A stretch of DNA of 63,994 nucleotides, filler included, from Basidioascus undulatus (Eukaryota), in NCBI GenBank assembly GCA_000826855.1. It is 3 parts of 3 records of this genome, joined end to end, with 100 filler letters (N's around TTAATTAATTAA, not from the genome) between each part and the next. Parts side by side here need not be neighbours in the genome. Positions count along the whole stretch, not along the records: positions 43,821 to 63,994 come from JTLS01000380.1; 2 more parts are not named here. One strand, 5' to 3'. This document shows positions 32,467 to 55,931 of the stretch, in pieces. Below the pieces are notes generated by a model, which had not been told where the DNA came from, made no database searches, and saw nothing but the letters and a program-made list of their open reading frames with translations. Within the stretch, counting starts at the first letter, position 1. Each line of letters starts with the position of its first letter. The position numbers were made by a program, and so were the translations under genes.

Positions 32467-35400
32467 CTAGGAGAAGCGATGCCGGTCAACGGCAACGCGC
32501 GGCGTATATCGGGGGGTGGACTGTTGCGCGCTCTGTCCTGCACCGCGGGTGACAGCCCTGTACGCCCGATCGAGACTGCGAATCTCGCCGACGGAAGACG
32601 CGGACTGCGCCTGCAGGTAGTGAGACGTGTCGGGCCGCACCTGCGCGCTGTGTGCTGCATAGCCCGGCGCCGGATCCGCGAGCGGCGGCACGGCCTCCAT
32701 TGGCCCCCCGTCGGCGTGGAGCGTCCCGCTCGTCTTCTCGAGCGTCTGTTCGATCGTCAGGCTCTCGCCAGGGGGAATCGCGTTCGGGTGCGATGGCGTG
32801 ACGCAGGGCATGTCGACCTCCTTGCGGAAGATGTGGTCGACGTCGACGGCGGAGAAGAACGCGACGCTCTGCGGCAGGTCGTCCATGCCCAGCTTGAAGC
32901 TGAACAGCGAGCGCGTCCATACGTTCGCAACCTGCAGCGCGAGGGCAAGACGGTACCGGTCCTCATCTTTGACGAGGAAGCGGAGCTCGTCGTGGACCGA
33001 GATGAGGTAGCGCGCGTCGATCTTGTATTCGCGGATGAGATGCTCCATCGCGACAATCAGCAGGTGCAAGTAATCGACACCGCTCGACTGCACGACCCAG
33101 TTGACGCGGCTCGTCATGAAGTTGGAGCCGGACGCCCGCGATTTCGGAAGGTGCTTGATCGAGAGCGCGGCCGTGACGGAGCAGCCGAGAGCTGGCGTAC
33201 GCGGTGCATCGCTAGTCGCGACCTGCTCGAGCATGTTGAAGACGTACGACTCGCTCCCGCCCCACCAAAACTTGCGCCTGAACGGCCCGTTGATCGTGTT
33301 GCCCTTGGTCGCTGCGTAGAGATCCGCAGCGCGTTGGCGAGCGTCCATCTCCGTCATGGTCGGGTTGGACTGGAGCAGGAGCTGGACGGCGTGCTTCTGG
33401 CCGGCGCCGTAGATCCGCGAGTAGTTGAACACCTAGAGAATGGAATAATGAATGGGCGATGTGTCGATGGAGGCTATAACACGAACGCTCACCTTGGCTT
33501 GATCACGGGTAATGCCCAGGATGCGAGCCGACACCGAGTGCAAATCCGTCCCAGCCGCCTTGGTGCCCTCGAGCGTCATCCAGCCGACGGCCGTCGCGCC
33601 GTGAAGCCCGAACTGCGCATCACCCATCACGCTGCAGATCCAGAGCTCCTCGGAGTCGACATCCGCGCCGACGAACGAGTAGCCCGGCGGTGCGCGAACC
33701 ATCGCCTTGAGCTCGGAGCCGACGCGGTTCTTCTTCGCATTCGAGGCGGTAAGCCACGTTCTCTCGATCGCGCGACGCGTCACGGTGCCCATCGTGATGA
33801 CCTGGGGAAGGATCATGCCAAACTTCTTCTCGTCGGCGGCCTTTGCGCCGCGCCCAAAGCCCATGTCGAGCTCGTTCTCGCGATCCCAAATGACCATCTG
33901 CTTCAGGACGCGCTCGCGCGCCGAGATCCAGTAGCTGCACTGGGCGTTGAGGTCGATCGCCTGGCGGGCGCCCTCGTACTCGCTCGTGAGCGTGCCGTTC
34001 TCGAAGGCCTTGATAAAGCTCTTCGCCAGCGGGTTGCCGACGTTGTGCTCCTCGCCGTCCTTGTGCGGGATCTTGAAGAAGACGAAGTCGCCGCTGGTCG
34101 CCATCTCCAGCAGGCGCTCGTCCGCGCTGTGCGCGAAAGTGAGCTCCTTCTGCCGCGTGACAAGGGCGGCCGTCTCGATGTCGGTCCGGGGGACTCGGAA
34201 TGTCCAACCATGCGCGCGAGAGTGGAAGATCGGGTAGCCCTGCCACCGCAGCTTGAGCAGCAGCGGCGACACGCGCGAACGCGGCGTAACGTCCACCCGG
34301 CCAGCGACGCGCTTCTTGCGCGAGTCGAGGTCCCAGTACCACTTCGGCCACCAGGCGAACGACGTGGAGGACGTGGCATCGGGGGAGTCGGTGGAGGAGG
34401 CCGGGAGGGAAGGGTCCGAGGCCGAAGAGGAGGCGGGAGAAGGTGGGGGGGATGCGGTATCGATGGCGGGAGGTGTAGAAGAGCATTCAGGCGCGCCGGT
34501 CGTCGGCGCGGGCTGCGGCGTGGGTGCGCTGTGCGGGTCGTGGCCGGCTTCGAGAAGAAGTTGTTGGCGTATACCCGTGCCGGCGACTGGGACAGGCGAC
34601 CAGTCGAGCATCTCCCTCCAAGCGTCGCCCATGCCCTTCCCCTCGCCCATCCTCCATCGGCCGGCCAGATCCCGCACGAGCTCGACAGCGCCCGCGCCGC
34701 CCCCTATATAAACGAGGAGGGCATTCGCGCCCTCGGCGGACGTGAGAACACCCTTGCGGACGAGAGGACGATGCACCGCCTGCAGTGGCTGCGCGAGCGT
34801 GGCGCTTTGCTTCGCTTTCGGTAGCTCGAAGAACGCGTGCGTCTTCATCTGAGGCGCGCGGCGGTCCGAGGGCGAGAGCGCGACTTCGGACGTCCCCTCG
34901 GGCAAGGGCGAGGCCGAGCGAGGGGCACGGCCGACCCAGCCTAACGAATCGGATCGCACGACTGGATTGCCGTGATACGAGAGACGGAGGAGGGCGGGAA
35001 GGATCTCACGCTTGGCGCGCTGCGATAGGAGGCCTTGCTTGTGAGTGTGCAGATCCGAGTACCAGCGCGGTACGGTCGTGGGGATGCGCGGGTCGTCGCC
35101 TGACGTGGACTGCCGGCGAGGTGAAGGAGTCGTGGGAAGAGAGGAGGAGGAAGGACGGGTGGCGGGGGTGGAGGGTGAAGCGTCGGGCGGCGGAGGGAGT
35201 GTGGACATAGGACGTTTCTCGCCGCGAGGGACGCGAGGCTTCTTCGGCGTCCAGTCGAGCTGCTCCAGCCAAGGATCGCCCTTCCAGCTGCCGTCCATGA
35301 GCATGCTCTTCGCCTCCTTGGCCAGCTTCGCCAGCTGGTCGAGCACGGTGTCCTCGAGCTCGCGGTACTTGCCCTCCGCATCGCAGAGGTAGCGCTCCCA

Positions 35401-37127
35401 GCTCTCGTCGACGGGGAGGAACGCGTTGCCCATTCCGAGCATGCCGGCGAAGCTCACAGGGTGCGGACACCTGTCGAGGAACGCCGGCAGCGTCTTCCGG
35501 TAGACGCTGTGCGTCGCGGCGACGTCGTTCGCGCAGTACGCGAGGAGCTGCGGCAAGAGCGGCGCAAGTGTCTCTGGGTCAGAAGACGGCTGCATGAAAA
35601 CGTCGCGTGTTTCCTTCTGCATCGGCGGCTCGTCCGGACAGTAGAGCGCGTGGACGTTTGCCAGCGAGTTGGAGCTTGTGACGTCCTGCCACGCCCGCTC
35701 GGCAACCTCATCGTCGAGGTCGGGCGCCTGGGCGATAGCGAGCTCCTCGGCCTCGTACCGCTCAAGCGATGCTCGAACCTCGGGGTCGTCCTCCAACTCG
35801 AGCATGGCGCGGACCGTCGCGCTCGCTTCTGCCGCGAGCTCGAGGCGGCGGGCCTTCTCGCGCTTGTGCAGCTGCCACGCAGGCCGCTGCGGAGACGAGA
35901 TGCCGCGCACGGCGACGTGTAGCGCCATGGTGTCGAGGAATCGATTCGGCGTACGCTCGAGCGAGTATTCGGGCTGTAGCCGAGCGCGGTCGTAACCGAC
36001 GTTGTGACCGACGACGATGCGAGGCGAAGCGGAAGGGAGAGGAATGAGGTGCGCGGGGGAGGGTGAGAGTCGGAGGAGGTAGGGCGAGAGCCAGGAGTAC
36101 CAAGCGCGGGGCGAGGCAGCGACAGCCATGATGGCGTAAGGAGAGATATGCGGCAGGGTCTCGACGTCGAACGTAATCATGTCCTCGTCCGCAGGACCGC
36201 CTTCGACGGCCTCCCAGCTGCCGTCCGCGTCATACCGCGTCCACCCAGGCTGATCGGTCACCCAATACTCGGGCATGGGGGGAAGTTCGGCGTCTGCGAA
36301 GCGCTTCGCGATGTTGAGGTACGGCTGCGAGAACTCCGCGCCGATCCGCCAGAAGTGGTGGTCTACGTCGGGGCCTTGGAGCGGCGGAAGGGTGAAGGTC
36401 GTCTCGGGAAGCGTCGAACCAGCGAGAGAGCCGAGGTCATGCTTCGTGAGGTGCTCGATGGCGATATTGGTGGCGGCTTCGGAAGGAGGTTCGAGATCGT
36501 AGGGGAAGATTTGCTTGCGGAGAGAGGGTGTGAGGAGCTGCACGCCTACGGGATTTCGACTCGGTACTGCAAGGGGAGAAAGGGACTCAGTGTCTGTGCG
36601 CAATATAGAATTGAAACATGCGCACATGACGCTGATGCTCGGCCATTTGGTTTACTATCGAGACGCGCAGAAGAGGTCGAGTCTGAAGAAACGTTGAGGA
36701 CTGAATTAGTTTGGAACAAGCCCGACAACGCAGCAATCTCACAATATCGGGACAGAGAGGGACGAGTTTGTCTACTTCCGATGCTGGACCGGTGTACTGG
36801 ACCTACAGAGTCCGCGTCAACAACAGCGGGGCAGCAGGAAGACACAGGTGAGCTCACCGGGCGGCGACATCGAGGACGACTGCCGTTCTTTCCGAAGTGG
36901 ATCTTCGCCTGATGTTCCTGCAAGACACCCTCTCCATAAGTTTGGTTGAAAGGTCCGATATGCCGAGCCAACTCACGCCCGCGGTCGATCGAAAGAGAAC
37001 GCCGAGTGCAAACTTGAGTGCCTCGTAGGCTTGCGACGGATCGCGAAAGCGGAGGACTTCCGGGGGAAAGTTGAAGCGAATGCGACGGTACGCTCGACAG
37101 TCTCCGCCATCTTGGTCGAGTTAGCAT
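32467..37127 (-). CDS. MIP1: Mitochondrial DNA polymerase gamma
   Basis: Exo motifs FDVET, VGHNVGYDRAR, YCANDV; Pol motifs VGADVDSEELWI, RDQAKV|FNYSRIYGAG, ISVHDELRFLV. R/S-rich presequence MLTRPRWRRLSS... at 37127; 5' exons approximate. Confidence 0.95.
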
Positions 37128-40401: not shown

Positions 40402-41029
40402 CGTAGATGGTTGGTGGCGCTTGAGGGTCAACCGATAGCACAGGGAAGGCGAGATAACGCCTCGCGCCGGGAAACTTCACGTGATGATCAGCATGAGGCG
40501 AAGTGAAACAGACAGCGTAGCCCTTCAGATGATATGTTCGATCAAAGAGTATATAACATTGGATAAATAGCGATGACTCTGCCGGGACTCTCATAACCAA
40601 GCTGAGAATGCAATCCGAACTACGCTTCGTCCCGAAGATCTTGCAGAGCTGTGTCACCTGTAAACAACGGCTGCGATTCGTGCTAAATGACAAGAAGGGG
40701 ATGTTGACTATCACAGGCATGATTCCATAGTGGCCTTGAGCAGCGGAGTAAGCCGTGTCGTTCTAATTGTAGAGTCGTGGAGACTCTGCATGCCGGATCC
40801 GCAGCTACGCCCTACACTGTCAGTCAATGGTGAAGTTGCTGCAGTTAAACGAGCTTCAACGTAAGCACGGTCATCCCGAGACGAAACATTGTCGGGCCGC
40901 ATTCTCCACTACTATAACTGCCAGACTATTCAATGTAAATCAGCTATATCTTTCCGTGCAGAAGCCCGAGCTCAATTTGGTGGTCTCCCTTCCATTGAAC
41001 GTCAATGTCGGCCGCGAACCTTTCCTCAA

Positions 41030-42140
41030 GTGCAGTGTTCAGTTCGAGTTGCGCTCACAGAAGCCTCTACTCAGGTCAGCGTTCAGCTGAACTAAGACTT
41101 TGGAAGGGCTCTGTTGAGCATAAGATTCCTCGTGATAACTTCAGGAAAACTTTACTGTCGTCCACACCGACTATGCGCCCGATGTGCCTTCTTCTTTGTT
41201 TATGCCTCTTCCTACTGTGACACCAAAGCTTTTCGGTCGGTACTCTTTCTTTTTAGTGCACTGAGCTCTTGGAGACTCTCTTAATTCACTATCTTCTTCG
41301 CCGGCGGCAAGGGTATAGTGTGTCCCATCCCCCGGCATCGACGTACAACATGGTTGTGTCACTTGCTCATATGTGCTGACTATATACATTGCCCGCACTA
41401 GAACGGAGACTTGAGACCGACGTGCACCGAGTTCATCCCCATTATAGAATTCCGTGGAAAGGTACCGCCAGAGTCGAATCATAGAGGCATATGAGACTTG
41501 CACTGCACACGGGATCTAGACATAGCTGCGCTGACGTGTAGCCAATGATGAAGTTGCTGTGGTTCAGTATGGCTCACTATATTTATGTAGCCATGAGAAA
41601 TTCTGCTACCTTGCTACCGACAGGGACTTTCCAAGTCACGACCCGTCCCAACTCATGTGCAGGTTCTACGTGTCCAATCATACCAAGCATTGTTCATCTC
41701 GAAATCGAAACATCCTTAATCGTACACTTTACCGCCATTAATGTACATATTTTTCCAGTGCATTATACCTTGAGCTTGATGCGATAGTTTTCCTCATTGA
41801 ACACCAATCTTTGCCACAACTTCACCTCATGCTGCAGTGTTCGAGTTGTGCTCAGAGATCTCTACTTGGAGCAGCGTTGAACTCAAGGAAAATTTGGGAA
41901 GGGATACTTTTAGAGGAAGATTGATCTTGAGAACTTCAGGAAAACTTCATTCTGCACACTGACTCAGACTATGTGTCCAATGTGCCCTTCTTCGTCTCTG
42001 CCTCTTCCTACTGCTACGTGTGAAGCATTTCGGTCAGTTCTCTTCTAGTTCGATGGGAACTTGAAGGTTTTTCTTGGTTCAAAGTATCTTCTTCAAAGGC
42101 TGCAAGGGTATCAGTGCGTCCCATCTCCTTGACATCAACA
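41030..42140. repeat. Degenerate ~300 bp tandem duplication
   Basis: 41030-41345 resembles 41833-42135, e.g. aacttcaggaaaactt, gactatg.g.cc.atgtgcc, tgcctcttcctactg, tatcttcttc, gcaagggtat, gt.cccatc occur in both. Confidence 0.75.
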
Positions 42141-43720
42141 TATAACACGATTATGTTGCTCCGACTGCCGACATTGTCCTCCATAGAACTAAATGATGCA
42201 ATGCCGTTACATTTGTCGAATTTTATCGGTGGAAGACCATGACCTCCAGCATTTAGAGAACTATTCTCGTGTCGACACCAAGGTGATGGGTAAACAACGT
42301 AACGACTCGAACATCACGCTTTTTTGCATTTGGGAACAATCTCTGAATCAAGGATAACAGTGACCGCTGCCAACCTCCTTTGGGTATCAACACTAGGACA
42401 CTCTCTTTACATTCACATTTGAGCATTCACATTGAGTTGTCAACCAGCCAAAACATTGACAGGATTCAAACCCCTGAGTGAACACAAACGGAGGGTTCAA
42501 CCTGCTCGGTCATGTCAAATGGCATAATCCATGTATTGGGTGATTGTACTTATGACTATCAACGTTTCTGAGACATTTTGCTCGCCGCGAGTTGTTTGTC
42601 TCCGAGTCTCCGCAAAGGCAATCTGACTTGGCAGGGAGGGGCTGCTGGTGTATCTCAGAATGTAAGAAGAACAGTGTCCCTCTTATCATGAGTAGATCCT
42701 AAAATAACAACTGTGCTCAAAACGTAACCCTTAAGTCAACAAGACTAAAAGGTCAGGGTGCACACATCCGCGCAGGCGCAGTTTTGGCGACTGGTGAATT
42801 GCCACTCAAACAAAAGCACAAAAGCCGACAGCAGAGCTGCGCTGGGAAACATAGACAGGATGTTTGTGCTTTTTGTTCTCTATGGATGGGCCAGTGCAAT
42901 AGAGCGAGCGCATGTTTAGTTCAGGTGAATGCGGAGGGTTCGCTGGAAGTTTGTGGTGATAGGGTGAGTCTCTTTGGCACTCGCATGCCATCGTTCTTGC
43001 CTTATTCAACTGAACATGATCCTTTATGTTGTGGAAATTACCTTGTTTCACTCTGGATTTATCAGGAAAGAGGTCGGCGCAATAGGGGCCTAATGGAAAC
43101 CGGAGTTCGAAAAGGCAGTCTGCAACTGTCCTGTTCACACACACGAAAGTCATCTTGGAATGCTGAGACATGTGAGGGAAAGTCTTTTCTTAGACTCCGA
43201 CGTCACTTACCAATTCCGCTTCTCTTGGTAGTTCCTGAACCAGCTGACCTGGTTGGCTGTGTCTTCGCTGTGCCGAAACAGACAACAAACACAAATATCA
43301 CCTGGCTCTACGCTCTTTCCACTTTTTACTATGCCATATAGCTAAGAGAAGCGCTCAAAATAGTCAAAGTCTCTTTCTCCTCATTGCCTGCGCTTTCGGC
43401 ATGTTCGCCGCACCCGTGCCACAGACAGGTGAGGGACTCAAGCAATTCCATGCTGGGGACCATACTGATGGATCCTAGACTCCAAATTACAGCCCCTAGA
43501 GGAGTTTACCAACATTTCATGGAGGTAAGCGAGACGACGTGGATGCTGATATACTTGCCTGAAGGGATGGCTGAGCATTCATGGAGTTGGGGGTACAGCA
43601 GTTGTATGTCCTTTCCACCCTGATCTTTTCCACATGTCACCACTCTCAATTATCTTACTGATCCAGTGCCACTTGATGAGATCTGCTTGGTCTGTCAAGA
43701 ATTCGACTGGGTGGGGCAGA

Positions 43721-43820
43721 NNNNNNNNNNNNNNNNNNNNNNNNNNNNNNNNNNNNNNNNNNNNTTAATTAATTAANNNNNNNNNNNNNNNNNNNNNNNN
43801 NNNNNNNNNNNNNNNNNNNN
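43721..43820. other. Artificial contig-joining spacer
   Basis: 44 N + TTAATTAATTAA + 44 N, identical to the first spacer. Confidence 0.97.
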
Positions 43821-44445
43821 TGATGTCCGGAATCGGGTGGCCCGCGTCTCTGCAGGCCTTCATCACCACTGCCCTCCCGCGCTCCTTCTAGTCAGTATCA
43901 CTGCCGTCGCTGCTACGCACGAGCCAGACGCCGGCAAGCCCACTTCCTCGACTCAGGGAATTGGAATTTCCAAATTCAGTTCTACCGATTAAGGTCGCGT
44001 CCCGGGACCGAAAAAGTAGGAAGTAGGAAGTAGAAGGAAGTGACCCCACGCACCGTCCGCGCCGTACTGCTGCCCATCAGCAACGATATCCTCGAACTCC
44101 AATCCGACCTGGCAGTTCAGACAGAGCGTCGCGTTGGCCGCCATGCCGGCGGAGCAGTAGCACTCATTCAGGCCTTCGAAGTTCAGGCCGGTCGAGGAGG
44201 AGGTGGAGTCCGCCTCGGTCAGGTTGCAGTTCTACCCGCCCGTTTTCCGCCCGTTCAGCAACATGGAAGAAGGAGCAGGAGGAGAGGGGAAGGGGATGGG
44301 GATGAGTAAGACGGACGAAGATATAGTACTGACCCTCGTCGCACCCCGTGCAGGACTCGGCAAGGTCGGACTCTTCATCCCGCGCTTCGAGGCGGAACGC
44401 ATGTGCGGAGAGCGCGAGGAGGGGAAGGAGGAGCGTGGCGCGCAT
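43821..44445 (-). CDS. Small secreted cysteine-rich protein, 3' truncated at contig edge
   Basis: Signal peptide MRATLLLPLLALSAHA, then ESCTGCDEGQYYIF|NCNL...NECYCSAGMAANATLCLNCQ...|VVMKACRDAGHPIPDI. Confidence 0.7.
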
Positions 44446-44870: not shown

Positions 44871-46766
44871 ATGTCCTACGAAATCGATCAAATAGAACTC
44901 GAAATTGCTCAAGTCGACCAGGGCTTTCACTCGTCTTCTCTCTCGTCCGGCTTAGCAATCGAATCCTCTCCGAGCCCTGCTCCGAGCTTCGCGTCCGAGC
45001 TTCCTCCAGTCGACGGAGGGCGCGGGGCATGGACGTATTTGGCCAGCGCCTTCCTCGTCGAAGCTCTTGTCTGGGGTTTCCCGGACAGCTATGTGTGTTC
45101 GCGTTTCTTCATGTTTTCGTCAGTCATCTGGGCGAGCTGACCCCCGCGTTCACAACAGGGTGTCTTCCTGAAGCACTACCAGACGCACCCACCCTTCTCC
45201 GAGGACTCAACGTCGCTCTTGCCTCTCACTGGTGTCCTTACGACTGGCATCATGTACATATCCAGCCCGGCCTTCATCGGGGTCATGAACCGCTGGCCCG
45301 AAGTGAGAGGCCCGAGCAAGTGGTTGGGAGTCGCGGCCTGCTCTGGCAGCCTTTTGGCTGCAAGCTGGGCTACCAAGGTGAGCCAAGCTGGAGCGCCACA
45401 TTCTTGCATCAATTCATGCTCATCTCGGGACCGTGCAGGCTTGGCACCTTGTCCTCACGCAAGGCGTGCTCTACGGGCTGGGCGGATGTGCGTGATATCC
45501 GTGGTATCCGCGTTGCTTGCGTTTCCGAGCTTTTCAACTAATGAGACTCTATCTAGCACTTCTGTATCAGCCGACGGCCTCCTATACCTCGGAGTGGTTT
45601 GTCGCCAAAAGGGGGCTGGCCCTGGGCGTCGTATTTGCGGGTGAGCCAGAATCCTCCTGAAGTTGACCGGCGAGCATTTCTGACGAGAAGTGCAGGGACT
45701 GCGGTCGGTGGACTCGTGCTTCCCCCAATAATCGAGGCTTTGTTGTCTCGTTATGGGGTTGCGATAACGCTTCGCGCATTGGTTAGTAGTTCTGCCATCG
45801 CCAAAGCACGACACTTATTCAGGAATCCAATATCCAGGCTCTCGGGGTACTTGTTCTTCTTCTCATTACCATGCCCTTCCTCCGAGGGCGTCTGCCGGCG
45901 TCCAGGGCAGCTCGGTCGGGCCGTGAGCATGGGCAGGGCTGGGAGTGGAACTCCGCCTTCTTCGTCTTTGTGATCGCCAACACGCTCCAGGGTCTAGGCT
46001 ACTTTATTCCCAGCTTGTACCTTCCAAGTAAATTCAAAGTTTTGCGTACATTGACCATTTGCGGATTTATCGCTTGATGCTGATTACGGACTGCAGCCTA
46101 CGCGGAATCGTTACGGTTGCCGAGCTCCGTCGGATCCGCGGCTGTGTCATGCTTGAACGGTACGTTGTTATCTCGGGCGTCTTTCCCGTATAAGACGAGA
46201 TGTTCATATTTGGCTTCAGGAGCCGGACTTATCTCCCGCCTCTTACTCGGTGCACTGTCCGACCGCTTTTCTCCGTACACTCTCGCCACCAGCAGTCTGC
46301 TTTTATCAGCTATGTCGGTTTTCACCCTTTGGGGACTCTCCACGTCTCTCCCGTGTAAGTGCTCCCTCGTGCGTCCCAGCCGCAAGTGACTGACCTTTTC
46401 CACTACCCCTCCGCAGTGCTGATCGTTTTCTCTCTCTTGTACGGCTTCTTCGCCGCCGGGTATCCTTCTCTCTGGGCGGCCATCATCGGCCGGGACACCT
46501 CGCCTTCCCGCTTCTCGACTCTCTTCGGCATCCTCTGCGTCTCCCGCGGGCTCGGCAACTTGCTCACTGCGCCGGTTTCGACGGGCCTGCTAAAGCGCAC
46601 CCTGGGCACGGGTGTCTTGGGCGGCTATGCACAGCCTTACGCGGGATCGCACAGTGGCACTTTCGGCCCGCTCATTGTATGGGTCGGTGCTTTGCTGGCC
46701 GGAGCTGGGCTGGTCTCTGCTGGGATAGAGGGTGTCCAAGTCCACCGGTTGAAGGTTAGAGCATGA
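44871..46766 (+). CDS. MFS transporter, monocarboxylate porter (MCH-like) family
   Basis: LPPVDGGRGAWTYLASAFLVEALVWGFPDSY|GVFL, LVLTQGVLYGLGG, SEWFVAKRGLALG, SRLLLGALSDRF; ~12 hydrophobic segments. Confidence 0.92.
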
Positions 46767-46899: not shown

Positions 46900-47990
46900 G
46901 CGACGGCTGCCGCCAGCTTCGAAAGGTATCGACCAACCGGTATGTTGCGGTACCGCGCTGTTCGTCGTCTCCTCCCATTCCGTTCGATTCAGGCCGATGC
47001 ACTGTAGGCCAAGATCGGTGATGCTCCCATTCGTGCCACCGAAAAAGATGATTAAAACTCTGTGACATGAGGAATGGAATCGTTATTGAAGTACTCACGT
47101 GAGGCGTTGTCGGGTTGACGTTCTGCATGTCCTCCATAGCGCCAAACCAGCTGCGAGGATCGTTTGGTTTGAGTTAGAATTGAGGGTCATAGACCAGGAG
47201 AGACTCACGATACCGCTCAACCCATTTAGTCAAGTCCACGAAGACCTGCGTTTCTGAGAGGAAAGCCACAATGTCGTCGTAATTGCATTGCGGGCCGCCG
47301 TTCTGTGGCAACCGTCAGTGGTCGTCTAGAGTGCAGTAGTCAAAACGCTTACAAAGTCTTGACACTGTTCGCGTTACATGTTGGTAAGACTATTATCTCA
47401 AGATACGACCTAAGAAGACGTACAGCCCACTCCGTGACCCAGACGCTCATGTCGAACGTATCGTGCATGTCTTCCTGTGTCGCAGCGCTGTGGTCAACGG
47501 CGCTCGAACAAACCCAGCTGAAGCGCACTCACCAAGTACGCCTTGAATCCCTCCAAGCTCGTGGTATAGTAGTGCAGCGCCAGAAAGTTGAACCCGCACT
47601 GGTCTCCGCATTCGGCGGTGAAGTTGACCAGCCACTCCTTGCTGTGGGTCAGCGCCGGGGTGCCGAGCAAGATGTCTTGCGCTCGGAGCGGTTCCAGGTG
47701 CTCCTTCCAAATCGCAACGCCTTCTGAAACAGTCAAATTGGCCTGCTCATGGAAGTTCGGTCTGTGAAAAATGCTCAGTATCCTCTCGATTCGGGTATAT
47801 CGAAGACGTACTCGTTGAAGATTAGCACGTGAGACGTACAGTGATATGTAGTTCCATTTGCTATTGGGCCACGCCAACTCGATCTTCGCACTTAGATTTT
47901 GAGCGCGGGCGGCAGCGACACACGACGGGATGAGTAACGATATTCGAGTGAGCGCTAGTCTCAAACTGACCCGGATGGACTCTGAGAAGC
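46900..47990 (-). pseudogene. GH128 beta-1,3-glucanase pseudogene (internal deletion, no start codon nearby)
   Basis: LAWPN, then out-of-frame SHVLIFNE|PNFHEQAN, LALHYY, VWVTEWA, WVERY, WFGAM, GSITDLGLQ. The YxW...PMLWG block is missing and there is a frameshift near 47110. Confidence 0.8.
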
Positions 47991-48002
47991 CACTCACTGG
48001 GC

Positions 48003-48640
48003 TACACATCACCCCGCACAGGCTGGCTTTCGACATGGCTACTCCTGCTGTCGATGCAGAAGCCAGGTCGGGTAGGAAGAGGTACGCGGTCTTCCTTGAC
48101 TTTGCGACAGCCTACGACTCCCCCACAGTGGGAGCGAGAGACCGAGTCCTGAGCGCTCGAGGGCACCCCTAGAGTGGCGCTCCATGATATGGGCTCTGAC
48201 GGGGCAAGCCTGGTGGTGAACGGCCAGCGCCTGCCCCCCTTCCGCCGGACCTGCGGCTTTACCCAGGGGAGCCCCGCATCACCCATGCTATTCAACATCT
48301 TTATTGACCCCTTGGTCAAAGGACTGAACGCCGAGGCAGACCTTGCATTTGACAGAGACGGCTGCACCATGCCAGCATCCTGTTTCTTCGCAGATGAGGG
48401 TTCCATTCTGACGCGAACCCATGCTGAGGCAGCCCGCCAGAGCAGCACGGCATGCACTTCAATGTGGCCAAGTGTGGGGTGATCTCCCGCGACCCTGCAC
48501 CACTGACGCTCTATGGACAGGCTCTCCCCAACGTTCCCACCTACAAGTACCTTGGGATTCCCGTCGAGTGGGGGGTGCAGACTGGGTAGGATCGATCCTC
48601 TCCTCAACAGCCAAGACGGACGGGCTGCTACCATGACCGC
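48003..48640 (+). mobile_element. Degenerate non-LTR (LINE) retrotransposon RT fragment, C-terminal part
   Basis: HPAQAGFRHGYS, VFLDFATAYD, LVVNG...GFTQGSPASPMLFNIFIDPL, FFADEG (decayed ADD), FNVAKC, YKYLGIP, with frameshifts. Confidence 0.88.
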
Positions 48641-49152
48641 CCTTCGCTACCTGATCCCCCTCCTTTCGCTGCCTGGTGCAAAGCTTTTCCCTCCGGATTT
48701 TGACGCTGGCCCAGTCCCTTTTGACATGTTCCCTCTCCTGCTTCCCGCCCTTATCCCCCCGCCTCCCGTCTCCTGTCCCCCCGCCCCCACCTTAGAAGTC
48801 TACTCCCCCAGCAGCCCACTAGAAGCGTCGCATGCAGAGCTCTTAACGCCTAACCTTCTCGCACCCCATCGATACAATTTCACTTGCTACCTGAAATCAC
48901 GTCGCAGTATCCTATTCGCCTCCCTCCTCTTCGAGTTTTCCGCCGCTGGCTGATAACAGTCGCCCAGGACGCCGAAGATGCTTGCGAAGCTCTGCCGCGC
49001 GCAGAATCTCACATGCATTCTGACAGAAAGAGAAGCTCAACTTAGGGCAAGAGTGCAAAAGCGACAAGCAATAAGGTCAATAGCGGCTAAGATTCGATAC
49101 CTGTTGTTTCACAACCCCGAAGCAAGCCCAAACCCCACGCAAATGACTCCCC

Positions 49153-50517
49153 CTAAACCCCGAAGCGAGCAACAGCACGGTTAACCTCCTCACAAGTGTC
49201 CGAGAACTCCCCTCCATTGTCAACAACCAGGTCCGCGATGTCGCGGATCCTGTCCGCCCCGCGCGAGCGCTTGACCTCGTCCTTCGAGGCATCGAAACGC
49301 CCTCCCTGCGCCTCGGTCCGGCTGCAGCGCAACTCGAGAGGGGTGTCCAAGTAGACGACCAGCAGCTTCGAAGCGGAACTGTGCGAGCTGTTTGTCGGCT
49401 TGTCGAGGGTGTTGGACAGCTCTCCGGGCACGCCGTTGCCGATCAGCTCGCGTAGTCGACGAGTTAGCTCGTAGCTGTGCAAGCTCTCAAGGGTAATGAC
49501 CTTCAGCCAGCGGTGCGCGCGCGAAAAGCGATCGAGTTCATGCACAAGCTCGAGGGCCTGCTTGTCCTCGGGGAGGTCGTAGATGTGGCGTCCGAGCCGC
49601 GCACCAGCCAGCTCGAGCAGGTACCCAATCTTGAGGCGGAAGGCGCCGCCGTTCGAGGAAAAAAAAGCGCTCGAGACGGTAGTGGTTGCCACCGTTGACT
49701 TGCCGCACTCCGACAGGCCCCCAAAGGCCGGGCAGCAGCGCAAGTTCTGGAGAAGGGGCGTCCAGGAGTTCCCGACACCGCACAGACGCTGGAGCGCTTC
49801 AGTAAGTTTGCCCAGAGTCTCCATGAACGTCTCACCCTTCTTGCGAGTGATGACGAACGTGTAGCGGCCCGCGGCGACCTGGCGCTCGAGCGCTTCATGA
49901 AGGAGAAGCTGGTACTGGCGGTAGACTTGAGTGACGGGCGTGGACCGCTCCTCCTCCTTCAGACACCATTCGACGGCGTCTTCGAACGTGCCGGCACGAC
50001 GCAAGAGCAGACGGATAGTCTCAGTAGGGAAGCTGGCGCTCTTGCTGGCCAGGATGACGCTGAGACGCTGCTCCGCTTCGGAAACAGTGATCGAGTTCCG
50101 AAGGGCGATGCGTGCCACGCACACTGCCTCGAACATGACGGAGGAGCGATCGAGAACACTTCCAGGAAGCGAGAAGGTCTGACCGCCGACCACGATGGAC
50201 TTGGAACGACCGTCAGCGTGCCCGGGCCCCTGAGCGACTTCGAGACGGGCTGTGCAGGCTTGGAGGATTGTCTGCACAAACTCGTCGTCGGATGCTCCAC
50301 CCGACAAGGATGCGAGCTGGCCATCGATATCCAGTGGTCCGAACCACCAGGTGCCGAGAGAGCCTTCGGTGATCATGGCATGCATCACGGGGTCGAACAG
50401 AGGAATGCCGCCGACGTGCTCCAAGGGCCATGTGCGAGGAAAGAGACTGAGCAGGGTCGTCTTGCCGATGTTGTCGGGACCCGAGAGCGAGATAGTGAGT
50501 CGAGCGATGTCAGTCAT
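49153..50517 (-). CDS. Intronless tandem double P-loop nucleotide-kinase-like protein (~454 aa)
   Basis: Open frame from ATG 50517. Domain 1: ISLSGPDNIGKTT ... VLDRS (dTMP-kinase-like DR). Domain 2: FGGLSECGKST ... VVYLDTPLELRCSR ... ADLVVDNGG (CoaE/NMP-kinase-like lid and C-terminal motifs). Confidence 0.8.
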   Translation of the reverse strand: MTDIARLTISLSGPDNIGKTTLLSLFPRTWPLEHVGGIPLFDPVMHAMITEGSLGTWWFGPLDIDGQLASLSGGASDDEFVQTILQACTARLEVAQGPGHADGRSKSIVVGGQTFSLPGSVLDRSSVMFEAVCVARIALRNSITVSEAEQRLSVILASKSASFPTETIRLLLRRAGTFEDAVEWCLKEEERSTPVTQVYRQYQLLLHEALERQVAAGRYTFVITRKKGETFMETLGKLTEALQRLCGVGNSWTPLLQNLRCCPAFGGLSECGKSTVATTTVSSAFFSSNGGAFRLKIGYLLELAGARLGRHIYDLPEDKQALELVHELDRFSRAHRWLKVITLESLHSYELTRRLRELIGNGVPGELSNTLDKPTNSSHSSASKLLVVYLDTPLELRCSRTEAQGGRFDASKDEVKRSRGADRIRDIADLVVDNGGEFSDTCEEVNRAVARFGV

Positions 50518-50891
50518 AATGGTGAGGATAGATGCGCTGATAGAAGTGGCTGTTGAGTTGGAGGGTGGAGTCGATCGAAGGAAAGGAACAGGGAAGTGAA
50601 GACGAATGACTGGGAAGACACGAATGACTGGGCTCCAACGGCGCGGCAAATCCCAAATGACTCGTTCCCCGACCATGGCGACCTTTTGGAAGGCATAAAG
50701 GGGGTGTGTGTGGAAACGGGGGACTCACATTTTGTTTGGACAGACGCATTCCACATACACAGCCCCAAAACCGTCCGCAATTGCAAGCTTCCGCCAGGCA
50801 CGCTCGTGGCTTTTATCTTATCCTGGAATTTGGGGTTGTGAGAGCGCTGAGCACGGAATGCACTTTTGCAGAATGTCTCAAACCCCCTCTC

Positions 50892-53261
50892 ATGTCGATT
50901 ATCACCATAGCTGACCATGAGCACTATAATGTTGCTGCTTTCGCGGCGTTCGGGCACCAGCACAGACTGGTGGGGCTTCTCGTGGGCGGAAGCACAGTTT
51001 ATGCGTATGGAAGTGCTTTCACAGCCGAAACCCGTGACTGGGACGGCTTTGTGTTGGTTCAGACAGGCGGAGACGTCCTAGCCCTTCTCGCAGCGCCCGA
51101 TGCGCTTGCAGCTTTACTGGTGGTGGAGACCGACGTTCACCACGGATCCATGGTGCATAAGCTGCTCGAAGGCTCACTGAGTACATCCAATCTTTTGTAC
51201 GACCGCTTTCGCTTCGCATCGACGGGCATCAATAAGAGCATCAAAATTCTCTCGTACGATGCCCTTCTAGCCTGGAAACAGTCACGGCATCCTTCGACCC
51301 TTCGTATCCTGTCTACGAGGACATCTGGAGACTACAGCCTGTCGAAACTTACACTTTCCAAAACCCTGAGCGCGCTTTTTACGTCTTGCACGATGCAGAC
51401 GTGTTCGTGTCCGGCAGAGGCGGGGACTCTGCTCGTCTCGGCATCACGACAGACCTCATAACCTCTGGAGCTTGGCTCCCGCTCAGCGGTGATTCAGGGT
51501 CCGTAGCTTTTGCGTGTGGACCGGGAACGACGCAGATGCTTACAGACGGTCTCGCCAAAAAGCTTCTGAGCCTTCACTCTGCGCGGCTTCCTCTCGATCT
51601 GAGCTCACTGTGGGCGCGTCATCACTGCTTTGAGCCCGAATTTCGTCAATCTATCGAGGGGTGGGCATGTCAAACGGTCAGCGATTACACTATCTTTACA
51701 CCCTCACCCAGATGCCCTCGTTGACGGAAGGAACGCCCACGATGTTCTTCTGGAAATTCAAGCCGCTGGAATCCGCTGAACAGCGGGCCGCGAACTCGAG
51801 TCTGTGGCACCTGGACCTCCGAGACTTGGTGCACCTGACTCTCGAAGATTTGCCCCTGTTCGAACCACCGTTGCTTTCAAGTGCCCTGTCCTTGATTTTT
51901 CTTCTAACTCTGCGGCAGGACTTCTTCAGCTCGGTCAGACGCACGGCAATAGCCTTCCCGACAGGCTATATTGGAAGGCGTCTTCAAACGTGCTCCACGA
52001 AATTGCTGGAGCTGCCGTCATTCGGCGCACCCCGTATTCGCACCGCTGCCAGCTTCCGGGGGCATCGAGCATATGTACCTAGTCTGAATTTGTTTTCTAC
52101 CCCTGACGCGAGGTTGTGCTGCTGGCCCAAAGTCGCATCGAGCAGCTCCAACTCCTCGACAAACCTCGCCTCAGTGGCTCTTTTGATAAGGTCGCCATCT
52201 CTCAACGCGGCCTCGATGCAGTGACACTCGTGGCTATGCAGCGGGCTGAAGACATGCTCGCTAGGTATCTCTCAACTGCTTGTTTCAGCGTTCCAGCCTA
52301 ATCAAGTCCCATTAATCGGTTTTACCATGACCGACTCGAGGAGAATAGCCGCATGGCACTCTTTTACTTGGAGGCGTTCCATTGGGGGACGGTCGCTTCC
52401 TAGCAATCAAGCAGTTTCTTCAGGCCGACCTCGCGCTGATTGGGCGGACTCAGCCGAGTCTCGCTACGCTGTTCGGCCTCGCTCAGAAACGACTTCATCC
52501 CACCACTTGCTCAAACGACCCGGTTGCAGCGGGCCATGGCGACTTGCACGGTGGAAACATCATGATACCGATCTCCCTTGCACCGCATCTCTCCTCTACT
52601 TGCAGTGCAGTTTCAGCGACTCCGCCACCTCTTCACACTTCCTCCCAGTAACGCGTCGGTTCTCTACGTCGACTACGAGACTTTTGGATATCATTCGCTG
52701 TGGCTCGACATGGAGAAACCACTGTACAACAGCTCGGTTTTCCCTTAGTTCTGTGCCAATTTCCTGGTGCTTGACCTTTTTACAGACGCGTCATCTCTGC
52801 ACACCTCCTTGAGGGTCAACCGGGCGAGGCAGATAGTCCCTGCAAGATTGATCTGACTTTCTCGCCCTTGACTTTCAACCTTTTCGGCGACTTGAGCCAG
52901 TTGGGGACATTGTTGGAAGAGGCTTGCTGGAGATCATGGTTCACTACGTGATAGAGCCCCTCCTCACTCACCAGACCGGGGTCGTGGCACGGGACAACAT
53001 GCCAACCCACGAGGGTAAGCACAATCACTTTGATTGAACCATGTCACGCACACACTGATAATGAACGATTATCACTTAGAAATTGTGAGACGCAGTTTGG
53101 ACACTCTTTCATTGGCCCTCCTTTGTTGCGCAATGCTCTCGAGTAACTTTGGCAGCCGCCCAGACATGCTGTGGGCAAACGTTGCCGTCAACCTCTTGTT
53201 AAGGGACATGCTCGATGGCTCGGAGGGCGCTTTCAGCCAGCTCTCGTCGCTGTTCTCATAA
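50892..53261 (+). pseudogene. Intronless nucleotidyltransferase-like + APH/choline-kinase-like phosphotransferase fusion, frameshifted
   Basis: N-terminal LLVGGSTVYAYG...RDWDGFVLV (Pol-beta superfamily GS...DxD); C-terminal GHGDLHGGNIM (52535-52558) and LYVDYETFGYH (APH catalytic and metal-binding loops). Several frame switches (~51380, 51700, 51880, 52380, 52650) and internal stops. Confidence 0.65.
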
Positions 53262-53452
53262 AATCAGACATATAAATCGTGAGGATATATGTCGCAATGT
53301 GTAGCGACGTCGAGTCAATACTGATCTAAATTCCCAACGTAGTATTTTCACCGGCAAGGCGAGGTCGTCACCGTTCAATTTTCGTGCTTCCATTTGCTCT
53401 TCTTCGTATACTCCACTACTATGCCCGTTTTCGATACCCAATTTTCTTCTTT

Positions 53453-53785
53453 ATGGCAAAATGTAATTGCAACTTGCCAGAACAGAAGTTCTGCGTACTG
53501 AGGAAGGCAGTCACCATGGTCCTCTCGAAGGCCACCAAGCAGGGGAAGGCAGACAGCGTGATCCGTGAATCTTCCCGATACTCTGCAAGATTGGTGCTCG
53601 AGCGTGCGTTCACGCATCAGGTCCTGGCGCACGAGCGGAGGGAGCAGATCGTCGAGGAGGTGCTGGATGATTTTGGGCGGCAAATTGCCAACTATGATCG
53701 ATCGGTGAGGGAGGAGATCGGCAAGGTCGTCAAGGCGTTTTGGTCGGACTGGACAGAGCTGCCTCTAGAGATCTCCGTTCGATGA
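53453..53785 (+). CDS. Small hypothetical helical protein or gene remnant
   Basis: GC-rich, coding-looking frame ...RLVLERAFTHQVLAHERREQIVEEVLDDFGRQIANYDRSVREEIGKVVKAFWSDW...; no family recognised. Confidence 0.3.
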   Translation: MAKCNCNLPEQKFCVLRKAVTMVLSKATKQGKADSVIRESSRYSARLVLERAFTHQVLAHERREQIVEEVLDDFGRQIANYDRSVREEIGKVVKAFWSDWTELPLEISVR

Positions 53786-54438
53786 AGAGTGGTGGCGGTG
53801 GGGCTCATGAACAAGAGAAATGATTCATTGCGCCCAATTGTTGGCTTCAGCATCGATGAACATCTCAGGATGTCGTATATCTAGCCGCGCCGGTCGTCCG
53901 GCCAGCAGTGAAGGGCTTTCTTGAGAACCGGCGGCCAGCACCAATCATCTCAACTCTCATATCAGCCTGGCAATCATCGGAGTTCTCTAGACTCTAGCTG
54001 TTTGGTGCCAGCGCGCAGGCTGCACGCGTTCCCTCTGGCACTGCAGCGCCCCGCATTGCAAAGCGGTATGGGTTCATGTCAACCATGATGGTAGCTTGCT
54101 CAGGATACGTTCACCAGATGAACTAGGGAATAATCATATTCGAGGAGGAAAAGCCAAATTGAAGACAACGCGCACGCCAATGACAGTCGGTGCAAGAACT
54201 GGCTGGCGACGAGGTCATACGCGGTGCAGACCACAAGGTGCAGGTCTGCTGCGATCTCAGAAAGGTGGAAGAGTAGACTATTGCTAGCACAGGATGAGGC
54301 ATGGCGAGGCTGACGCTGCTCGCAACGCAGCGTCGTCGGCTCAGCATGGGTCATCAACGCGTACATGCAGTGTGGAGAGGTTTACATACATCAACCGCAA
54401 ACCAACTGTCTCGCAGAAACCAACAGCCGCAGCGTATC

Positions 54439-55931
54439 TCAAGCCCCCTCCCCCGCCCCCTCCCTAACCAGCGGTGTTCTCTCGTCCGCGCCCACCACCT
54501 CCTCTCCCACCCCATTCCTCCCATCCAACCTCCTCCCAAAATCGTCCACCCCCAATCTCCTCTGCCTCCCCTTCCAAACTACACAAATCCCCAGCAAGCT
54601 CCCCTGGAGCACACCCGTAACCGCATACGGTAGCCAGCTCGTCCAGTCCGTGCCCTCGCGGAGGGCGATGCTGAGCACGAAGATGACGGACCCGGGGACT
54701 TGGATCGCCATGGTTGGAATGGAGAGCGCGCCGACGAGGCGCGTGCGGAATGTGTGCTGGATTTGGGGCGCGTATTGGAGGGTCGCTAGCTGCGGGTGGT
54801 GAGGGGAGGGAGCAGGTTAGGGAGCAGGAGAGGGAGAGGGACGGAGGGAGAGGGGCGCACAAGTGTGGCAGAGAGACCGAGGAAGGCCGCCCAGGTCTTC
54901 AATGCTGGGGAGGGGTGCGCGAACGAGGGGGTGGAGGTAGTGAGCAGGAGGGTGATGAATATGCCCAGGGCGCTGTTTCCCCTTCCGCCATTCAGTTCCC
55001 CCGGCGATCTTCTCCCCGGAAGGAAGGGAGAAAAGCCAGGACGCACAGATGGATCGCCACCACCCACGCGAGCGTCACAGCCAGCCTCCACTCCGCGGTC
55101 GTAGCGACCTTCGGGGCCGTCTTCCCATTCTCGCTGGCGGGGTCTTCCCCGGCGGCGGGGGAGGCGGACGCGTCGCGGGAGGCTGTGCGGGAGAAGGCGG
55201 AGGCGTAGCGCCGCGAGAGAGGCTGCACGACGGCGTACTTGATGTGCGGGGGGAAGTAGATGAGGAAGAGGACAAGGCTTTGGGGATGGTTCTCGGAGAT
55301 CAGCATGCTGGGAAGGTAGGGGGAGAGGATGGTAGGTGGGAGGGAGGACGCACATGACAGTGAACAGCGTCCACTGGATAGTGACCTGGATTATCCCGCC
55401 CAGGCTCTCCAAGCAGCGTCCAGCGCTCTGCGCAAGGCTCGGTCGATCAGCCCCGCTTGGAGGGAAGGGCGGTCCGCGGCACGACGCACCAGGTGCTTAC
55501 AGCACCGCACGACGCCCCACTGGACGGTGAAGAGGTTGAGCATCGCGGAGGCGGAGGAGGTGCTTCCTGTGTGTTTCGCGTGGGGGTTGAGAGAGGGAAG
55601 GAGCGTTGAGAGATGGCTGGGGTGGGGGAAGACGCACCGAGGAGGAGGTACCACGGGCTGAGGCCCTCGCTCGTCTTATTCTTGATGATGCGCAGGTGCT
55701 GTTCTCCTATTACCTCAGTCTCAGAATCAACGAGGGTTTTTGTACATTTATACGCACCTGGGGAAGATACGAGAGCACCAACCCCACGCACAGAAACGCG
55801 GTCAGCGTCGTGGCGACCGCATCGTGCGACTGCCCAGCGCCCGGCGGTCCCCTCTGTTCTCAGCTTCTTCGGTGGCCATCAGTGTACAACAAGCGTACAG
55901 GATTGCAAGTATCCTCAGGAAGGGGCTTCAT
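54439..55931 (-). CDS. PQ-loop repeat membrane protein
   Basis: MKPLPEDTCNP|SHDAVATTLTAFLCVGLVLSYLPQ|HLRIIKNKTSEGLSPWYLLLG, second loop LQYAPQIQHTFRTRLVGALSIPTMAIQVPGS, vacuolar-type ERTPLV near the C-terminus. Confidence 0.9.

Follow-up and report, generated by a model that had tools for sequence, protein, structure and literature searches.

The stretch of DNA analysed here, referred to as the window, comprises 63,994 nucleotides (filler included) of the Basidioascus undulatus assembly GCA_000826855.1, in three parts joined end to end, of which positions 43,821 to 63,994 come from JTLS01000380.1. At 49153-53261 it carries two features arranged head to head: an intact minus-strand gene encoding a tandem P-loop kinase, here named K2, and a plus-strand partner related to a fungal protein family of about 700 residues, in which a nucleotidyltransferase (NT)-like head appears to be joined to an APH/ELK-type kinase. 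A preliminary description had placed both features at these coordinates, and their starts were indeed found at 50517 (minus) and 50892 (plus), with 374 bp between them. It had further taken two co-regulated genes with four catalytic domains to suggest a horizontally acquired modification pathway; as a working unit this does not hold in B. undulatus, because the partner, judged by its alignment, is a pseudogene.

The kinase gene K2 and its decayed partner

K2 and the divergent region that separates it from the partner comprise the following features.

49153..50517, minus strand: K2 gene, an intact coding sequence (CDS) of 454 codons plus stop, with no intron in the CDS
50455..50481, minus strand: Walker A loop of K2 domain 1, GPDNIGKTT
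50140-50151, minus strand: DRSS motif of K2 domain 1
49693..49722, minus strand: Walker A loop of K2 domain 2, GGLSECGKST, the most conserved stretch of the K2 family
50518..50891: divergent intergenic region, 374 bp from start codon to start codon

The K2 frame is free of stops over 49153-50724 (523 codons; only two such frames in the window are longer), and the open reading frame (ORF) counted from an upstream ATG spans 49153..50676. The start is assigned to the ATG at 50517 (MTDIARLTISLSGPDNIGKTT...), where the homologues begin, giving 454 residues; the upstream ATG at 50676 lies outside the part of K2 matched by a transcript-like contig of run X3, described below. The protein aligns over its full length with 12 homologues and keeps every invariant residue of the family. 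That it consists of two tandem P-loop domains resembling nucleoside and nucleotide kinases, as had been proposed, is confirmed at the sequence level by the two Walker A loops and by profile matches in the PDB. With a profile of 34 family members as query, positions 1-214 matched deoxynucleoside kinase 8puu (E 4e-4) and thymidylate kinase 2plr (E 9e-4), and positions 235-388 matched the AdkA-like/UPF0200 P-loop proteins 3lw7 and 3h0k (E 7e-7). In domain 1, D123 and R124 of the DRSS motif are nearly invariant in the family alignment (A3), and we take this motif to resemble the ERS/DRY motif of deoxynucleoside and thymidylate kinases; in domain 2, the loop is invariant in 34 sequences (columns G267-S274). 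A separate domain-2 protein in locus L045 just passes the Pfam Cytidylate_kin model (27 bits against a cut-off of 26), and feature-based Atlas neighbours of K2, used as a lead only, are thymidylate-kinase, AAA_18 and AAA_33 clusters. The window protein itself matches no Pfam family above cut-off (AAA_24, E 0.1) and no NCBIfam family. Two fungal-type relatives, P0003 (GADEVGSTT) and P0006 (GADGTETAT), lack the Walker A lysine of domain 1 and retain an intact domain 2. In some lineages domain 1 may be dispensable.

Evidence of transcription comes from a sequencing run, X3, which is labelled 'DNA?' and whose contigs, like transcripts, leave out GT..AG intervals of the genes on either side (46027-46417, and 54789-54861 on the opposite strand). 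One X3 contig of 1366 nt is colinear with the genome over 49227-50563, which shows that K2 is transcribed and that its CDS has no intron. At 50563 this contig departs from the genome with 29 extra letters, which are absent from the window at up to two mismatches and could stem from a 5' exon further away, from chimerism of the contig or from adaptor sequence. The earlier claim that both genes lack introns thus stands for K2 and fails for the partner, which contains a candidate intron at 53015-53079 and an X3 joint from 51497 to 51562. Nor are long intron-free stretches peculiar to this pair: the minus strand at 33436-36651 holds an uninterrupted ORF of 1072 codons with a mitochondrial DNA polymerase exonuclease domain (E 1.5e-88), probably DNA polymerase gamma.

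The partner was mapped by comparing 50892-53261 with an intact 706-residue relative, encoded on the fungal-type metagenome contig L001, and with a profile of 31 relatives (alignment A2). By this comparison, the interval is a colinear, decayed copy of the roughly 700-residue fungal family, and hence a pseudogene. It opens at the ATG at 50892 and follows the family profile through frames 0, 2, 0, 2, 0, 1 and 0 in order, as listed below.

50892..51320, plus strand, frame 0: segment 1, NT-like head (profile positions 20-140 at 50946-51320, E 3.3e-11), with head motifs GGS at 50985- and DWD at 51033-
51326..51719, plus strand, frame 2: segment 2 (profile positions 170-209 at 51383-51481)
51784..52382, plus strand, frame 0: segment 3, start of the kinase half (profile positions 325-473 at 51894-52382, E 1.4e-12), with in-frame stops TAG 52080, TGA 52104 and TAA 52299 within aligned conserved residues
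52391..52570, plus strand, frame 2: segment 4 (profile positions 476-537, E 1.6e-12), with the catalytic loop HGDLHGGN at 52535-52558
52647..52757, plus strand, frame 0: segment 5 (profile positions 544-580, E 1.2e-10), with the metal-binding VDYE at 52668-52679
52787..53014, plus strand, frame 2, then frame 1 from about 52891: segments 6-7, weakly conserved (profile positions 602-628 at 52891-52971, E 0.023)
53015..53079, plus strand: candidate intron of 65 nt, GTAAGC..CTGAT..TTAG, joining frame 1 to frame 0 in phase
53080..53261, plus strand, frame 0: last segment (profile positions 639-679 at 53094-53216, E 5.8e-7), ending with TAA 53259-53261

The damage amounts to at least four true frameshifts and three in-frame stops, besides the one frame-restoring intron, and no single open frame spans the family length even after splicing. 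At 51320-51335 and at 52382-52391 the frame changes within too short a space to admit an intron. Searches with individual relatives by tblastn agree with the mapping, as P0095 and P0089 carry frame 2 on to about 51667-51703 and the L001 protein matches segment 4 (E 2e-7). Three other explanations of the frame structure were rejected: an intron at 52265-52348, through which the family alignment continues; an intron at 52075-52112, which would be only 38 nt long, in the wrong phase and made of residues that align to a conserved motif; and a frame 2 beginning at 51270, where the profile stays in frame 0 to 51320. The intron at 53015-53079 is predicted from sequence and falls outside transcript-like contig cover. 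X3 supplies only short pieces over the pseudogene (50569-51038 and 51562-51664), and its GT..AG joint from 51497 to 51562 runs into a stop at once and restores no frame; pseudogene stretches without X3 cover were not counted as evidence. A non-canonical CA..TG joint at 50794-50869, in the 5' region of the pseudogene, was seen in low-depth X3 contigs. The guanine-plus-cytosine (GC) content of the pseudogene has fallen to 0.54. Unaided searches of the plus strand recovered little: Pfam gave sub-threshold matches on nine ORF pieces (APH, E 0.14), a homologous-protein search with the 162-residue piece at 51236-51724 found nothing, and tblastn of bacterial K2-NT fusions gave no NT-like match there.

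The frameshifts and stops in the partner are real lesions and not errors. DNA contigs of two runs from two studies, X1 (2014) and X2 (2025), show no differences from the window over 48827-55000; either run may be the source of the window itself, so at most one of them is independent of it, and their differing depths and record counts show them to be separate data sets. Indel error is not a general problem here, given that the ORFs of K2 and of the polymerase (1072 codons) are clean. The frame breaks, which had been regarded as faults to be repaired before analysis, are consequently part of the genome. In annotation, the K2 start belongs at 50517 and 50892-53261 should be labelled a pseudogene.

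A check of coverage, suggested earlier as a safeguard against a chimeric assembly, gave no sign of one: the pair lies on a single contig together with its right-hand flank, although the left junction passes through a repeat. On that side the contigs break at 48431-48856, in a multi-copy repeat with a summed depth of 215-398 against 20-50 elsewhere, and Pfam recognises RVT_1 at 48153-48479 (plus, E 3.1e-6). It looks like a retroelement insertion just past the K2 stop codon.

48153..48856: left boundary, a reverse-transcriptase fragment plus multi-copy repeat, some 300 bp past the end of K2 (stop codon)

Adjoining the reverse-transcriptase fragment and repeat, a minus-strand glycosyl-hydrolase (Glyco_hydro_cc) fragment was noted within 47497-48856, and one contig each of X1 and X2 has an extra T behind 48160, in the repeat region, probably from another repeat copy. 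Elsewhere in the window, 41000-44000 has a GC content of 0.45-0.47 against 0.58 for the window, and those of its long ORFs that were compared with Pfam matched no family.

A four-part neighbourhood in prokaryotes

An intact version of the pair is found on L001, where a 706-residue ORF (933-3053, minus) faces an intact K2 of 427 residues (3765-5048, plus) across a spacer of 711 bp. Both L001 genes are without introns, the 706-residue protein carries the same motifs as the window partner, and its nearest named relative, at 80% identity, is from Gaeumannomyces tritici. A NUDIX gene (6003-6611) lies about 1 kb beyond K2. A lysine-methyltransferase (Methyltransf_16) fragment was also seen at L001 2-316.

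The claimed fusion of a nucleotidyltransferase to an APH kinase is borne out in part: the motifs are present and the kinase is confirmed at family level, while in the window the motifs lie in different frames and the head is recognised by motif and language-model features only. The C-terminal half of the fungal partner is confirmed, by sequence comparison, as homologous to a bacterial ELK kinase of 344 residues and as APH-type at the level of the family. A hidden Markov model (HMM) built from bacterial ELK sequences alone matched 60 of 93 targets (62 family proteins and 31 window ORF pieces; best E 5.5e-13); hhalign of the bacterial ELK and fungal partner profiles gave a probability of 98 (E 2.4e-13), and a pairwise blastp of the L074 ELK with the L001 protein gave 6e-9. 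One family member, P0192, passes Pfam APH (28.7 bits against 23.2), and P0134 and P0114 score EcKL at about 1e-3, below cut-off. The bacterial proteins share an FxK strand, a conserved E, QGDPxxxN and DYxxAG, which fit a protein-kinase-like enzyme; D187, N192 and D201 are invariant among them, and D540, N545 and D564 are invariant or nearly so in alignment A2. Neither the L001 protein nor the bacterial 344-residue proteins reach a Pfam or NCBIfam cut-off, and a PDB profile search with the bacterial ELK family and the partner family returned nothing significant (choline kinase, E 0.2, for the partner).

The head likely has a pol-beta nucleotidyltransferase fold. Its motif, GGSTVY..RDWDGFVLV, presents GGS..DWDG followed by a hydrophobic strand where the NT of prokaryotic K2 operons has TGS..SDIDV; S46 is invariant, and G45, D62 and G63 are at least 90% conserved (A2). 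An hhalign comparison of the head with the operon NT aligns exactly these motif stretches, weakly (P 0.015 and 0.006 with 95 sequences), and among 25 family proteins the HMM of the bacterial NT has a match at this position in seven (P0163, with the best E of 0.008, and P0175, P0142, P0136, P0143, P0135 and P0164). Among 30 Atlas feature neighbours of residues 1-300, ranks 1-3 are NTP_transf_2 clusters (0.93-0.94), a lead only; a PDB profile search with the L001 head returned nothing significant. Some family members of about 700 residues have further domains: P0120 (Fusarium sarcochroum) and P0141 carry a C-terminal methyltransferase domain, P0129 bears a GMC oxidoreductase domain, and P0215 (Marasmius tenuissimus) is named methyltransferase-domain-containing at source, its cluster-mate P0121 having no Pfam match. 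These may be further fusions or merged gene models.

Pattern scans for K2 located 48 metagenome loci and 80 genome loci (of 90 confirmed), in Streptomyces, Nocardiopsis, Nonomuraea and Kitasatospora as well as in metagenome-assembled genomes (MAGs) of Patescibacteria/Parcubacteria, one Nanoarchaeota MAG, Clostridia and Gammaproteobacteria MAGs. When HMMs built from the neighbours were used to score every ORF within 6 kb of K2, a constant core emerged that consists of K2, a pol-beta NT, an ELK/APH-type kinase of about 344 residues and a NUDIX hydrolase. At the 84 prokaryotic loci with at least 5 kb on both sides, NT accompanies K2 in 83, ELK in 81 and NUDIX in 82. The expectation that homologues of the two genes would be recurrent neighbours is therefore supported both by L001 and by the ELK counts. 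The parts are also fused in several ways: K2-NT in Nonomuraea, Sphaerisporangium and Kitasatospora, K2-NT-NUDIX in Clostridia, and elsewhere NUDIX-K2, NUDIX-ELK (the 344-residue protein) and NUDIX-NT; in Streptomyces, K2 is split into a 216-residue protein and a 599-residue DUF4254-K2b-NT protein. Bare four-gene operons occur in L002/L051, L010 and L018. The operon NT passes or approaches Pfam NTP_transf_2, and for the NUDIX parts the top-scoring models, with scores below cut-off, are those of MutT and pyrimidine (d)NTP diphosphatase.

Around this core the accessory genes differ by lineage. Streptomyces-type clusters hold a phosphoribosyltransferase, a GT9 glycosyltransferase, an SDR and a histidine phosphatase; Clostridia have a histidine phosphatase, HD, SDR and carbamoyltransferase genes; and Patescibacteria-like loci and a Gammaproteobacteria MAG combine, in overlapping reading frames, genes for an adenosine-deaminase-like protein, a carbamoyltransferase, a HAD protein and a dehydroquinate-synthase-like cyclase. 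Beside the four-gene core of the Nanoarchaeota MAG stands a divergent NUDIX-sulfotransferase fusion (402 residues, L002 7153-8361, minus). By their family assignments, these accessory genes appear to be tailoring enzymes of small-molecule pathways. In L007 (8599-16705) and L124 (187-7227), the core was observed within one operon of overlapping ORFs whose carbamoyltransferase is of NodU/TobZ type, and in the Streptomyces-type loci L102 (10624-12423) and L055 (13060-14223), DUF4254 stands ahead of K2 domain 2 and NT, with GT9 between phosphoribosyltransferase and ELK. A table in one published study links DUF4254 to the RfaF heptosyltransferase in Flavobacteria (PMC9425974).

K2 is present in 25 of the 301 genomes of Streptomycetaceae (the family of genome G001) and is hence an accessory gene. 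The suggestion that the locus belongs to nothing yet described is upheld: K2 and the kinase partner have no Pfam, NCBIfam or PADLOC family, PADLOC gave weak partial matches and no system-level match for the module, and a literature search found no paper describing it, the DUF4254 papers retrieved being on other subjects. Within the 64-kb window, no NUDIX or other module gene was found beyond the pair, as covered by operon HMMs over the window and by Pfam on ORFs of at least 90 residues from 33.4 kb onward (88 of 131 ORFs).

Origin, proposed function and rival explanations

Phylogenetic and distributional data indicate that both genes are likely of prokaryotic origin, in agreement with the horizontal acquisition suggested earlier. 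A K2 search yielded 12 matches among 5.8 billion clusters, eight of them unnamed and fungal-type, one from Nemania abortiva and three prokaryotic (two of these fused to a pol-beta nucleotidyltransferase). In the K2 tree all eight fungal-type sequences form one clade (support 97/98), comprising an ascomycete branch (Nemania and L001) and the branch of the window. The partner family is represented by 487 clusters at E<=1e-3, with named members in Ascomycota and Agaricomycetes, such as Xylaria, Penicillium, Fusarium, Athelia, Mycena and Marasmius; the best matches to the window pseudogene are from Athelia psychrophila (P0114) and Mycena latifolia (P0095), at about 30-35% identity. A FastTree phylogeny of the kinase half (62 sequences, with the bacterial 344-residue proteins as outgroup) unites 22 partner-family members in one clade (0.82), in which all 16 members named at source are fungal and six are unnamed, and in which Marasmius nests among ascomycete sequences. 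The sister of this clade is a 12-member AT-rich clade whose sole named member, P0191 (705 residues), comes from a Patescibacteria MAG, and the ELK of L074, a locus in a genome of 0.7 Mb, is in turn sister to the two together (0.96). The fusion of head and ELK probably predates the transfer to fungi, and the donor was probably Patescibacteria-like, a placement drawn from one named sequence and modest support. In 401 genomes of the phylum of genome G002, a search for full-length head-ELK genes returned ELK-part matches only, in two genomes; a literature search on transfer from Patescibacteria to fungi found no relevant precedent. Third-codon-position GC is 0.75 in K2 against 0.80 in the DNA polymerase gamma ORF, and this host-like composition indicates an old resident and not a recent island.

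On these data, the locus is probably a two-gene fungal remnant of an undescribed prokaryotic module that was acquired horizontally, with the pathway broken in B. undulatus and K2 kept alone. The pair would have entered fungi from a Patescibacteria-like donor and resided there long enough to gain host composition and at least one intron. The substrate of the module as a whole may be a small molecule resembling a nucleoside or a sugar, on which it would act at the nucleotide level. K2 would phosphorylate in two steps, from nucleoside to nucleoside monophosphate (NMP) to nucleoside diphosphate; phosphorylation of a hydroxyl would fall to the ELK kinase and transfer of an NMP to the NT, and the MutT/NudG-like NUDIX protein would trim or proof-read triphosphates. 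Lineage-specific enzymes (phosphoribosyltransferase, GT9, SDR, histidine phosphatase, carbamoyltransferase, cyclase, HAD and adenosine-deaminase-like proteins) would then tailor the product. In B. undulatus, K2 may persist alone as a nucleoside/nucleotide kinase; its retention, intact and transcribed, argues for a use that is independent of the partner. A bolder version of this proposal, which we hold to be a doubtful though not negligible possibility, would see in the module a self-contained pathway that makes or processes a nucleotide outside the canonical set, for example an antimetabolite or a nucleoside derivative used in signalling. On this view the pathway passes between Patescibacteria, DPANN archaea, actinomycetes and gut Clostridia; fungi would have captured it whole from a Patescibacteria-like donor as a two-gene cassette, which would have been dismantled here with the tandem kinase retained for a new, partner-independent role.

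Several observations weigh against the module-remnant proposal. The case for a nucleotidyltransferase head depends on a brief motif with poor statistical backing: an initial hhalign comparison with NT gave an E of 0.099, and the bacterial NT HMM yielded no matches at E<1e-3 on the 93 targets. Adjacency of K2 and partner in fungi is shown only for L001 and the window, the sole hint of linkage in Nemania abortiva being that both proteins lie on 91790-long contigs. The roughly 700-residue family looks far commoner than K2 (487 clusters as compared with 12 matches), an imbalance that may mean that partners mostly act in the absence of K2 or may stem from the word filter used in the K2 search. Deep forks of the K2 tree have a support of 37/8 and do not resolve the donor, while in the kinase-half tree the split between fungal and AT-rich clades has modest support (0.47-0.82) and one of the 12 AT-rich members is named. 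An intact paralogue of the partner elsewhere in the genome is possible. Finally, a single chemistry for the module is an assumption, as the accessory enzymes differ by lineage.

Alternatives concerning the state and descent of the locus itself fare worse. It is barely credible that both genes are functional, with the frame changes of the partner due to introns, sequencing errors or recoding. Such a view can draw on the canonical intron at 53015-53079, which accounts for one frame change, on a 64-nt GT..AG interval at 51720-51783 that would also join frame 2 to frame 0 in phase, and on the short transcript-like contigs over 50569-51038 and 51562-51664; against it stand the two frame changes without room for an intron, the three stops in residues aligned to conserved family columns, the immediate stop met by the joint actually observed, and the letter-for-letter agreement of two DNA runs alongside clean K2 and polymerase ORFs. 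Vertical inheritance of old fungal families with many losses, the prokaryotic copies being unrelated to their origin, is also quite unlikely. Although the partner family occurs in both Ascomycota and Basidiomycota, composition is host-like and an intron is present, the distribution is patchy, with the few K2 matches noted above; the prokaryotic copies span several phyla in many architectures with a fixed four-part neighbourhood; the fungal sequences fall into single clades, with Marasmius nested among ascomycetes; and K2 and both L001 genes are without introns.

Three further alternatives concern what the module does, and each fits fewer observations than the proposed nucleotide-level pathway. 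An anti-viral or conflict system built on making or sensing a modified nucleotide, akin to kinase-assisted nucleotide-analogue immunity and borrowed by fungi, is unlikely: a sporadic, accessory occurrence (25 of 301 genomes) across distant phyla and fungi, weak matches of NT to CBASS-type cyclase models (E 3e-5) and an adenosine-deaminase-like gene in 7 of 17 well-flanked mixed-group loci (mostly Patescibacteria-like) would suit it, but PADLOC matches are weak and partial, the core has no effector such as a nuclease, NADase or pore, and the conserved partners are biosynthetic (SDR, glycosyl-, carbamoyl- and sulfo-transferases, cyclase). Similarly improbable is nucleoside/nucleotide salvage or pool sanitation in tiny-genome symbionts, with the fungal K2 as an extra nucleoside kinase; it would leave unexplained the obligatory pol-beta NT (83/84) and ELK (81/84), the glycosyl-, carbamoyl- and sulfo-transferases and the accessory status in Streptomycetaceae, despite the frequency of the module in genomes of 0.7-2 Mb and in the Nanoarchaeota MAG, its combination of nucleoside- and NMP-type kinase domains with a MutT-like NUDIX and an adenosine-deaminase-like protein, and the survival of K2 without the partner in the window. 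The fold families are those of aminoglycoside nucleotidyl- and phospho-transferases, and weak matches to ANT(4')-Ia (E 0.0034) and, in family members, to APH and EcKL were recorded, which would agree with a set of ANT-like and APH-like enzymes with helper kinases conferring resistance to drugs or xenobiotics; this is very improbable, as a constant set of four different enzymes, with fusions in every combination, is better explained by a pathway than by parallel resistance, and the core proteins reach no model cut-off.

The significance of the locus, itself a relic, lies mainly in the module that it exposes and that merits experimental work. A single fungal locus leads to a conserved four-enzyme module without a family name, a solved member or literature, which spans Streptomyces (a model strain among them), candidate-phyla bacteria with sub-megabase genomes, a Nanoarchaeota MAG, gut Clostridia and many fungi. 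Its fixed association and many fusions make it a well-defined target for enzyme discovery, with a product that is probably a nucleoside- or sugar-nucleotide-type metabolite. It also appears to show clearly how fungi gained a prokaryotic cassette of several domains, with Patescibacteria as a possible source, and how the two partners met unequal fates after transfer, K2 being kept and the other gene decaying.

Comparison with known systems

Individual parts of the module resemble well-characterised enzymes. The operon NT, in passing or approaching NTP_transf_2, is like the aminoglycoside and lincosamide nucleotidyltransferases of the pol-beta type, and the ELK partner shares with APH/EcKL kinases the catalytic D..N loop and the D-x-E/D-Y metal site, one family member passing APH; unlike the module proteins, however, these resistance enzymes are not locked to a tandem P-loop kinase and a NUDIX protein. 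K2 shares Walker A loops with deoxynucleoside/thymidylate kinases and CMP-kinase/AdkA-like kinases and has profile matches among them (8puu, 2plr, 3lw7/3h0k), and a C-terminal motif of CMP-kinase type underlies the Cytidylate_kin match in L045, but K2 differs from single P-loop kinases in having two domains in one chain with a conserved linker.

At the level of pathways, three systems offer partial parallels. The ADP-heptose pathway, which serves a GT9 heptosyltransferase, consists of a kinase, a phosphatase, an adenylyltransferase and an SDR epimerase, and the Streptomyces-type cluster likewise combines kinase, phosphatase, NT and SDR genes with one for a transferase of the GT9 family. The two nevertheless differ in the enzymes used, since the cluster has ELK and P-loop kinases instead of pfkB, a pol-beta instead of a cytidylyltransferase-fold NT, and a histidine phosphatase instead of HAD; no sedoheptulose isomerase was seen in it, and GT9 is absent from the module core and from fungi. 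Tubercidin-type purine nucleoside antibiotic pathways work at the nucleotide level, with the phosphoribosyltransferase TubE and the Nudix protein TubG, and the Streptomyces-type cluster resembles them in combining phosphoribosyltransferase, NUDIX, reductase/SDR and phosphatase, as would act on nucleotide intermediates; the module lacks deazapurine genes, however, and K2, NT and ELK have no counterpart in the tubercidin pathway. Pairs in which a kinase precedes or feeds nucleotide chemistry are also known, including the choline kinase LicA (APH fold) with the nucleotidyltransferase LicC, and CMPK2 beside viperin. The likeness here lies in the coupling of an ELK-fold small-molecule kinase to nucleotidyl transfer and in nucleotide kinases that feed the formation of a specialised nucleotide, whereas the module is set apart by its pol-beta type NT, the lack of a radical-SAM enzyme and a conserved core of four parts.

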